Shown piece by piece: positions 1,502-2,323 of a stretch of DNA of 6,746 nt (the first letter of the stretch is position 1; each line of letters starts with the position of its first letter). The notes below the pieces were generated by a model. The model was not told the DNA's origin and searched no databases. It saw only the letters and a program-made list of their open reading frames with translations. Location: IMG/VR virus record IMGVR_UViG_2663763286_000009, positions 1 to 6,746 of that record, one strand, 5' to 3'. The translations under genes were made by a program, and so were the position numbers. This stretch comes from a virus (taxonomy: Duplodnaviria > Heunggongvirae > Uroviricota > Caudoviricetes).

Positions 1502-2290
1502 TTACCCCCTGAAGCCTGGCGGGATCGCACTGTCCGGCAACGAGACGGTGTTAACCTGTCGGAGCAACGTCTCAGGCCGAACACCTTTCGGTACGAACAA
1601 GCCCTGGTATTCATTGGCGATGCTGTGTCGAATCACCTGCTCAGGTGTAAAACCCTGCTGACGGAATTTTTCCAGTTCCCGTATCGCCCCGTTAGCGCCC
1701 TGCTCCGTTCGAATCGGTTTTCGCAATGCCTGCCTGAACTGAACCCACTCATGCCAGAGTGTTTCCGGCAACCAGTCAGGCAGCTCGATAGCCTCCGGCT
1801 CGAATTTTTTAGACGCTCGTTTTTGGCGAGGGGGATTTAGGGGGAGATCAGTATTTATATCTTCCTCTTCCTCTTCCTCTGGTAACGCTTTTTGATCCGT
1901 TTGTGTAACGCTGCCAGCGTTACCTTTTCGTTTCAGTTCGCGTATTTTTGTAACTCGCTCGTTTGTAACCGCCCGTTTTTTAGAGCTTTTCCCGTTATGA
2001 CGTTCAAAGTTAGGTAGAGAAAGCCCACCGTCATTTTCGACCAGCCATCCAACCTGAATTAACGCATCAGCAAAACCAGCCATAAAAGTGATGCGATCTA
2101 TTGCACTTTTTGTAACGCCGCGAGCGTTACAATCTGCATTACCGTCTATCATTTGTTGATCCGCCCATGCCCAGAAGCGAATAACCTTCCCTAATGCGGC
2201 ATCTGGATCAATATTCAGAATCTCAGCAAGCCTGAATATTTCCGGCTTATCCGGCGTAATAACCTCGAGCTTTATCCAGTTTGAAGCCAT
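1502..2290 (-). CDS. ydaU: Replication initiation protein, O-like: N-terminal DUF1376-type domain, acidic linker, DnaT-like C-terminal domain; Rac YdaU-like
   Basis: 262-aa ORF; ATG 2290 with AAGGTG 8 nt upstream and an in-frame stop 3 codons upstream. EEEEEE linker encoded by the repeat at 1861-1880. Paired with and translationally coupled to the DnaC-like gene, as dnaT-dnaC and lambda O-P are. Contains iteron-like palindromes. Symbol by synteny. Confidence 0.8.
   Translation of the reverse strand: MASNWIKLEVITPDKPEIFRLAEILNIDPDAALGKVIRFWAWADQQMIDGNADCNARGVTKSAIDRITFMAGFADALIQVGWLVENDGGLSLPNFERHNGKSSKKRAVTNERVTKIRELKRKGNAGSVTQTDQKALPEEEEEEDINTDLPLNPPRQKRASKKFEPEAIELPDWLPETLWHEWVQFRQALRKPIRTEQGANGAIRELEKFRQQGFTPEQVIRHSIANEYQGLFVPKGVRPETLLRQVNTVSLPDSAIPPGFRG
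1861..1880. repeat. Hexanucleotide repeat (CTTCCT)x3 on the plus strand, encoding the EEEEEE linker of ydaU
   Basis: cttcctcttcctcttcctct read directly; in-frame 6-nt unit. Confidence 0.6.
1905..1923. repeat. Perfect 19-bp palindrome GTAACGCTG c CAGCGTTAC inside ydaU (iteron-like, copy 1 of 3)
   Basis: Every position pairs except the central base. Half-sites GTAACGC at 1882-1888 and TGTAAC at 1949-1954 and 1964-1969 cluster around it, with T-rich tracts nearby. Confidence 0.5.
2110..2132. repeat. Palindrome TTGTAACGC cgcga GCGTTACAA inside ydaU (copy 2)
   Basis: 9-bp arms with a 5-bp centre; same arm sequence as copy 1. Confidence 0.45.
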
Positions 2291-2302
2291 TTGTTTTCAC
2301 CT

Positions 2303-2323
2303 TGTAACGCTCGCAGCGTTACA
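2303..2323. repeat. Palindrome TGTAACGCT cgc AGCGTTACA in the ydaT-ydaU intergenic region, next to the ydaU Shine-Dalgarno (copy 3)
   Basis: 9-bp arms with a 3-bp centre; same arms as copies 1 and 2. No U-tract on either strand, so not a terminator. Confidence 0.45.

Follow-up and report, generated by a model that had tools for sequence, protein, structure and literature searches.

Conserved palindromes in the O-like initiator gene of a Rac-like prophage as a candidate lambdoid replication origin

Introduction

We analyze here a stretch of DNA of 6,746 nucleotides (nt), positions 1 to 6,746 of the IMG/VR virus record IMGVR_UViG_2663763286_000009 and referred to throughout as the window, focusing on a set of palindromes located within and just upstream of a gene for an O-like replication initiator. 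The window corresponds to the region for immunity and replication of a Rac/CP-933P-like prophage; among complete E. coli genomes, an O157:H7 strain matches it best (97.9%). The list of open reading frames (ORFs) and a Pfam scan identify in this region a racR-like repressor gene (3157-3618, plus strand) and, on the minus strand, ydaS (2774-3055) and ydaT (2368-2790), followed by the initiator gene (1502-2290), which encodes 262 amino acids, and by ydaV (755-1495), which encodes a DnaC-like helicase loader. A first-pass annotation of the sequence had put the palindromes forward as the iterons of a candidate prophage origin, and comparative evidence from relatives of the initiator supports this proposal, with the function inferred. 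The palindromes are maintained as DNA at two positions within the initiator gene across bacterial phyla, their arms change in concert with the protein, and they adjoin a polypurine tract that is itself selected at the DNA level.

Materials and methods

Homologues of the initiator were collected by exhaustive search of a sequence library clustered at 50% identity, which yielded 6,907 representatives at E ≤1e-3 and 4,360 at 1e-10. We compared 154 loci from genomes and IMG/VR, plus ten phage loci, spanning Enterobacterales, Pseudomonas, Burkholderiales, Xanthomonas and Ralstonia phages, Vibrio, Planctomycetota, Verrucomicrobiota (Akkermansia) and other groups, and derived from them an alignment set of 76 non-redundant protein-aligned sequences. 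Selecting loci by palindrome score is partly circular; a protein-anchored alignment was used for the sites, and Arg codons were counted in loci chosen by protein motif alone (EKRR, KRRE or REEK). The counts expected at synonymous third positions were computed from each gene's own codon usage. The structure of the initiator was modeled with AlphaFold (AF2) on a 22-sequence alignment.

Results

A pattern search of the whole window returns exactly three perfect GTAACGC-N5-GCGTTAC 19-mers, against a chance expectation of 0.00 and with no match in any of 200 dinucleotide-preserving shuffles; no further site appears in the window even with three mismatches permitted. The first, which we designate site 2 and propose as the core iteron (GTAACGCTGCCAGCGTTAC, 1905-1923), falls in the interdomain linker of the initiator. 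Site 1 (GTAACGCCGCGAGCGTTAC, 2112-2130), a proposed auxiliary initiator-binding site, lies within the coding sequence of the N-terminal domain, and the upstream palindrome (GTAACGCTCGCAGCGTTAC, 2304-2322), a proposed third initiator site that is possibly autoregulatory, precedes the gene. Sites 1 and 2 have counterparts in relatives at large, and the upstream copy has them in Enterobacterales relatives. The identical arms described in the first-pass annotation are therefore real, but its variable centers of three to five bases are not: all three palindromes share a single 7-N5-7 geometry of 19 base pairs (bp), and the shorter spacers arose because fortuitously complementary bases beside the core had been included in the count.

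Additional half-sites cluster around site 2 and lead into a purine-rich stretch. An exact half-site, GTAACGC on the plus strand and GCGTTAC on the gene strand (1882-1888), stands directly before a 21-nt polypurine tract (AGAGGAAGAGGAAGAGGAAGA on the coding strand; 1860-1880, minus strand) that encodes EEEEEE and is followed by the AT-rich sequence ATATAAATA (approximately 1851-1859, minus strand); tract and AT-rich sequence together form a proposed DNA-unwinding element. The T-rich tract noted in the initial reading of the sequence is thus the pure pyrimidine run that this polypurine tract presents on the plus strand. That reading had also listed half-sites at 1882, 1949 and 1964, of which the first is exact and the other two amount to GTAAC pentamers (GTAACTC and GTAACCG, at 1950-1954 and 1965-1969 on the plus strand), weaker half-sites located upstream of site 2 in gene orientation. 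GTTAC pentamers occur at similar positions in some Enterobacterales relatives; the two pentamers of the window could instead be driven by coding. A half-site with one mismatch, GTAATGC (2136-2142, minus strand), precedes site 1 by 12 nt on the gene strand; at this position Enterobacterales relatives carry an exact GGTAACGC. The linker array of the window is partly degenerate: besides the palindrome at 1905-1923, it comprises two half-sites, one decayed and one exact (1882-1888), and the purine tract.

The initiator matches PHROG 2509 (replication initiation protein, 1.9e-89) over its full length, and its C-terminal part matches phrog_678 (replication initiation O-like). A Pfam scan of the protein gives no match, so that the family is defined here through PHROGs and homologue searches. 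In the AF2 model, a helical N-domain with a beta-hairpin, winged-helix-like in appearance (residues 1 to about 122) and ending in a long basic helix (residues 95-122), is followed by a disordered linker (about residues 123-161, with disorder at 126-161 in the model) and a helical C-domain, the YdaU-type C-terminal domain as such comprising residues ~139-262. Site 1 (residues 54-60) corresponds to a loop between helices that shows lower predicted local distance difference test (pLDDT) values in the model and variable length among relatives. Site 2 and the purine tract fall at residues 123-146, within the disordered linker, in agreement with the earlier placement of sites in the linker segment of the O-like gene, and at the junction of an N-/C-module mosaic. 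Only the last 124 residues align with YdaU of E. coli K-12 (80% identity), there being no relationship between the two N-terminal domains; at the DNA level, homology with K-12 ydaU begins at gene position +428, at the end of the purine tract. The gene previously named ydaU is thus an O-like initiator, as had been recognized, but it is not K-12 YdaU proper, with which it shares the C-terminal 124 residues alone. Since the N-domain and the repeats differ from those of K-12 while the C-domain and ydaV are shared, the N-domain and its repeats constitute one module and the C-domain and ydaV another, and such swapping of an N-domain together with its repeats is, as judged from the sequences, the classical behavior of lambdoid O genes.

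Searches with the N-domain alone find homologues fused to differing C-domains, including the DnaT-like PF17948. As a separate observation, residues 244-262 of the initiator (window 1502-1561; ...VSLPDSAIPPGFRG) show a weak match to the last 19 residues of DnaT (NF002770, E 0.004), the family profile gives marginal DnaT matches in the PDB, and some family members carry full DnaT-like PF17948 C-domains; a C-terminus of this type may link these initiators with the PriA/DnaT restart primosome.

The genomic context of the gene is that of a two-gene replication module. The product of ydaV matches Pfam IstB_IS21 and Bac_DnaA, PHROG 50 (DnaC-like helicase loader, 2.1e-83) and the NCBIfam models PRK12377 (2.3e-151) and DnaC (5.9e-91). 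In relatives, the gene directly downstream of the initiator encodes a DnaC-like protein, DnaB, a lambda-P-like protein (PF06992, at 1.7e-55 in the Shiga toxin (Stx) phage TL-2011b) or a Toprim-DnaB primase-helicase. These downstream genes are helicase loaders or helicases, which places the initiator gene in the initiator ('O') slot of such modules.

Across relatives, the palindromes behave as elements selected at the DNA level. The motif GTAAC-N9-GTTAC, mostly in the form GTAACGC-N5-GCGTTAC, recurs at +142..+160 and +334..+412 from the ATG at nearly all loci, over a range of 40-100% protein identity, and the two in-gene sites are kept in Enterobacterales, Pseudomonas, Burkholderiales, Planctomycetota, Verrucomicrobiota and the phages TL-2011b, CP2, Usme and QkW1, whose proteins are 40-70% identical. 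The arms are invariant, while the five central bases are free to vary. A lack of conservation of the arms among relatives had been named at the outset as one of the outcomes that would speak against an origin; they are instead kept at the two in-gene positions across phyla. On the protein-anchored alignment, a perfect palindrome occupies the same seven codons as site 1 in 45 of the 76 relatives, and the base that the palindrome requires stands at its four synonymous third positions in 43/44, 44/44, 44/44 and 44/44 cases, where 11.7, 26.8, 25.3 and 13.6 would be expected. Every change from AAC to CAC (Asn to His) in this segment is paired with a synonymous change from GTT to GTG 14 nt away. An equivalent of site 2 is present at +334..+412 in 53 of the 76 relatives, and its reading frame (0, 1 or 2) differs from locus to locus, so that a common peptide cannot account for it. 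The sites are also exclusive to the gene: the complete 44.8-kb genome of TL-2011b contains just two matches with up to two mismatches, both in the initiator gene. A group of Verrucomicrobiota loci (L032, L042, L051, L058 and L059) departs from this pattern, with palindromes that are degenerate, retaining AACG...CGTT cores alone, and a polypurine tract that is short or absent; judging from these sequences, the origin has at such loci either diverged past recognition or moved.

The array in the linker follows a plan common to all clades: direct half-sites, one to four in number and spaced 11-12 nt apart, come first, and after them inverted half-sites, a 'CC' and the polypurine tract. Half-sites outside full palindromes reach a density of 13.4 per kb at +300..+400, against a background of about 1.1 per kb. 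At 52 of 75 loci the linker array is followed by 15 or more consecutive purines, which occur in only 11 of 1,373 control windows; the tract reads (AGAGGA)n in enterics but (AGAGA)n in the majority of clades, and the element GCGTTACC-AGAG... is kept across phyla. Within the motif-selected loci, Arg codons in the tract are AGA in 91 of 93 cases, compared to 6.6% AGA elsewhere in the same genes, and this bias implies that the EKRREE protein motif is dictated by the DNA. The AT content is highest, at 14-15% above the locus mean, in a zone 35-55 nt downstream of the center of site 2.

The sequence of the arms differs between protein clades, and both sites of one genome carry the same arms. One clade has GTCACGC/GCGTGAC, combining the Asn-to-His substitution with the synonymous GTT-to-GTG change and carrying site 2 in another frame; the epsilon15/phiPSA1/BUCT711/Carin1 clade has GTCCGC-N7-GCGGAC, with the first array shifted to codons ~18-35; the Ralstonia phage Raharianne has GTAGACG/CGTCTAC; and GTTGCGC/GCGCAAC, CTAACGC/GCGTTAG and GTTACGC/GCGTAAC are found in single lineages. 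On a neighbor-joining tree built with the site-1 columns masked, the arm classes follow the protein clades, with GTCAC arms occurring in two separate parts of the tree. A de novo scan detects at least two 19-mer palindromes with similar arms around the gene at 53 of 76 loci, versus 5 of 243 flanking control windows. In the epsilon15 clade (L158, L160, L165 and L166) we also observe that the GTCCGC/GCGGAC half-site arrays lie at gene positions +54..+110 and +333..+400, the second being followed by AGAGAAGAGAAGAGAAGAGAAGA; this candidate origin is unannotated in the epsilon15 record.

Beyond the replication genes, the two ends of the window (1-117, plus strand, and approximately 6672-6746, minus strand) are what we take to be the 3′ ends of IS3-family transposase genes, one of them ending in ...WVDWYNNRRLLERLGHIPPAEAEKAYYASIGNNDLAA before its stop. 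The insertion sequence (IS) at the window end cuts short a DUF1627 gene (start 730, minus strand), and recE (5475-6671) is likewise cut short by an IS, with the N-terminal PF06630 part alone remaining. The truncation of both genes by these ends indicates that the prophage segment is bracketed by IS elements and is probably defective. Two further inverted repeats were noted in the window. A perfect 13-nt repeat (AAAAAAAACCGAC/GTCGGTTTTTTTT, 3646-3677), just past the racR-like gene, has the appearance of a bidirectional intrinsic terminator, and a perfect 10-nt repeat (ATAGCCTGCG/CGCAGGCTAT, 5379-5403), downstream of the ORF at 5050-5373, is probably a terminator hairpin.

Discussion

We consider it likely, by analogy with known origins, that the 19-bp sites are iterons for the N-domain of the lambda-O-like initiator encoded by the same gene, with the linker array and its tract constituting the origin and the other copies serving as auxiliary sites. 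Analogy and the anatomy of the locus suggest how such an origin could operate. The dyad sites would be bound by the winged-helix-like N-domain, and the origin proper would comprise the linker array at 1882-1923, with its weaker half-sites extending to 1969, and the adjoining polypurine AT-rich tract at 1851-1880. Initiator molecules filling half-sites spaced about one helical turn apart would distort the DNA, leading the purine/pyrimidine tract to open, and the C-terminal domain of the initiator would then recruit the DnaC-like loader encoded by ydaV, through which host DnaB would be loaded. The palindromes at 2112-2130 and 2304-2322, set about 200 bp apart, would act as auxiliary sites, perhaps by looping to the origin or by dampening expression of the initiator.

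Several features of the locus weigh against this interpretation. The linker contains one full palindrome and flanking half-sites, several of them degenerate in the window, instead of the four tandem iterons of lambda, and the other full palindromes lie about 200 bp from the linker. The polypurine tract is just moderately AT-rich in the window, and the IS-bracketed copy of the prophage may be inactive. The published mapping of the Rac origin, oriJ, concerns a different N-module. Finally, binding of the initiator, strand opening and replication from the site are inferences from analogy.

The alternative that retains most plausibility, although we deem it unlikely, is that the sites function only as operators, through which the initiator or another phage regulator represses or roadblocks the replication operon, with the origin located elsewhere. 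Palindromes are typical dimer operators, as in the autoregulation of iteron-plasmid Rep proteins, and two or three sites about 200 bp apart would fit repression loops. The copy at 2304-2322, moreover, spans -32..-14 from the ATG and abuts the Shine-Dalgarno sequence AAGGTG (2298-2303). Its equivalents, at -32..-44, are confined to Enterobacterales relatives, among which the arms are kept and the centers vary even between close relatives, whereas the two in-gene arrays are universal. A simple, non-exhaustive consensus scan of the minus strand from 1700 to 3200 finds no sigma-70-like promoter near the upstream copy, in the interval between ydaT and the initiator gene, no promoter-like site accompanies any copy in the window, and no inverted repeat overlaps an initiator-gene promoter in the way of Rep operators; the initiator gene appears to share a transcript with ydaS and ydaT. 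This lack of a nearby promoter weakens the suggestion, made in the first-pass annotation, that the copy beside the ribosome-binding site autoregulates initiator synthesis: the idea is plausible but draws little support from a copy restricted to Enterobacterales, and the copy may plausibly be a third site for the initiator that serves regulation or looping. An operator, in addition, would have no need for the DNA-level-selected polypurine AT-rich tract to which the strongest and most conserved array is fused, and the position of that array in the interdomain linker is the classical position of lambdoid origins (PMC7466680).

Somewhat less probable still is the recognition of the sites by another protein, be it a host factor, the YdaT, YdaS or RacR regulators, or the loader. 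In favor of this possibility, the Pfam scan reveals several helix-turn-helix proteins encoded in the window. Against it, the neighbors differ completely among site-bearing loci, comprising methylases, hypothetical proteins and P-like, DnaB or DnaC-like genes, and the initiator gene is the one constant partner of the sites, which makes its own N-domain the simplest presumed reader. The arms track the N-domain clade on the masked tree, and a host factor that is conserved from E. coli to Planctomycetota yet switches specificity between related phages is implausible.

We regard as very improbable a role of the palindromes as mRNA hairpins controlling translation or stability of the initiator transcript, or as a terminator on the antisense strand. 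Each palindrome can form a hairpin of 7-9 bp, the upstream one partly sequestering the Shine-Dalgarno region, and arm changes are compensatory between clades; the site at 1905-1923 is also terminator-like on the plus (antisense) strand, the sole match to the terminator pattern among sites that otherwise do not qualify as intrinsic terminators or structured RNAs. RNA stems, however, need no common sequence between sites, and these sites share one and change it in concert. Deviations within clades affect a single arm and are uncompensated, leaving many sites at 6/7, and the flanking unpaired half-sites at helical-turn spacing have no role in a hairpin. The folding energy of the upstream hairpin is unexceptional (z = -1.1), and the T-run is not conserved in GC-rich relatives.

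A by-product of a repeated protein motif (N-A-x-S-V-T), or chance, could be entertained on the grounds that sites 1 and 2 share a frame in the window and encode CNARGVT and GNAGSVT, but this explanation is effectively refuted by the shuffles, the use of all three frames by site 2, the fixation of synonymous positions, the paired codon changes and the non-coding copy at 2304-2322.

Joining these observations to the origin reading suggests a broader hypothesis, to which we give slightly less than even weight. A very large initiator family spanning many phyla and lacking a Pfam model (~6,900 representatives at 50% identity) might carry its origin within its own reading frame, in the form of two clade-specific half-site arrays and a universal (AGAGA)n tract, with the protein motifs that are most conserved in the family, G-N-A-x-S-V-T and E-K-R-R-E-E, as the shadows of DNA elements. 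The purine-rich transcript, made on a pyrimidine template, may form a stable R-loop that opens or primes the origin, a mechanism that could link to the DnaT-like C-domains, and the family would comprise at least six naturally orthogonal initiator-iteron pairs.

Taken by itself, the window would be unsurprising, with an O-like gene that contains an origin and a prophage that is bracketed by IS elements and probably defective; what merits attention is the breadth and clarity of the comparative signal. If the origin reading is correct, it provides a sequence rule for finding the origins of thousands of phages and prophages in groups as distant as E. coli and Salmonella (TL-2011b, epsilon15) on the one hand and Planctomycetota and Akkermansia on the other: the initiator gene carries the 19-mer of its clade at two fixed positions, and a polypurine tract follows. 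The reading would also explain the oddly conserved loop and linker motifs of an uncharacterized protein family, document a natural co-evolution of initiator and iteron specificity that could be used for the design of orthogonal replicons, and supply candidate iterons for origins of the Rac type, which are classical but poorly defined.

We found no description of this origin in the literature searched, and a paper on the replication regions of non-lambdoid Stx phages does not mention iterons. Among known systems, the Rep proteins of iteron plasmids (pSC101 RepA, F RepE, R6K pi) are winged-helix initiators that bind direct repeats to start replication and inverted repeats to repress their own synthesis. 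The locus analyzed here resembles them in the coexistence of direct and inverted half-sites and in the presence of one palindrome just upstream of the gene. Plasmid origins, in contrast, are non-coding and lie beside rep, and here the sites are inside the gene; the Pfam scan detects no Rep_3-type homology, and no promoter overlaps the upstream palindrome.

The Rac prophage of K-12 is of the same type as that of the window, with the same gene order (racR, ydaS, ydaT, initiator, ydaV), a C-domain 80% identical and a shared loader, and it is treated in the literature as bearing an active origin, oriJ, the published oriJ primers lying in ydaV (PMC3945230). Its YdaU differs in the N-domain and has no GTAAC-N9-GTTAC site, carrying instead (A/G)TGTTCAAACA repeats, direct and inverted, at the equivalent place in the linker. 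Given that both the N-module and its repeats differ, the element of the window represents another origin specificity and, with regard to the Rac origin mentioned in the first-pass annotation, cannot be oriJ: the N-domains are unrelated and DNA homology is limited to the region from +428 on. In the K-12 Rac locus (L001) we further observe TTGAACATCTG and TGTTCAAACA repeats, direct and inverted, at 3619-3690 and additionally at 3838 and 3923, in the ydaU linker; they precede the shared C-domain and are followed by an AT- and purine-rich stretch. From their sequence and placement, these repeats are candidate iterons of the classical oriJ.

The closest parallel is the lambda origin, where the middle of gene O contains an AT-rich tract and iterons that are imperfect inverted repeats of 19 bp, two iterons and the tract being enough for unwinding (PMC7466680). 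The likeness to lambda pointed out in the first-pass annotation extends to several features. In both cases the initiator gene contains the origin, actual or proposed, in the segment for the linker that joins a DNA-binding N-domain to a loader-recruiting C-domain; the sites are 19 bp long and dyad-symmetric; the adjoining AT-rich tract is asymmetric in purines and pyrimidines; and a helicase-loader gene follows immediately, as P follows O, with a lambda-P homologue in some family members. The N-module and its iterons are likewise swapped between phages as a unit. There are also differences. In the Pfam scan, the N-terminal domain shows no detectable homology to that of lambda O, and one full palindrome flanked by half-sites, direct and then inverted, takes the place of four tandem full iterons. 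A second array, moreover, lies about 200 bp upstream within the region coding for the DNA-binding domain, with a third before the gene in enterics, and a nearly invariant (AGAGA)n tract is common to clades with different iterons. As far as the sequences allow it to be read, the design of an origin within the initiator gene is the known lambdoid one, and what is new is its variant with dispersed arrays in this family.

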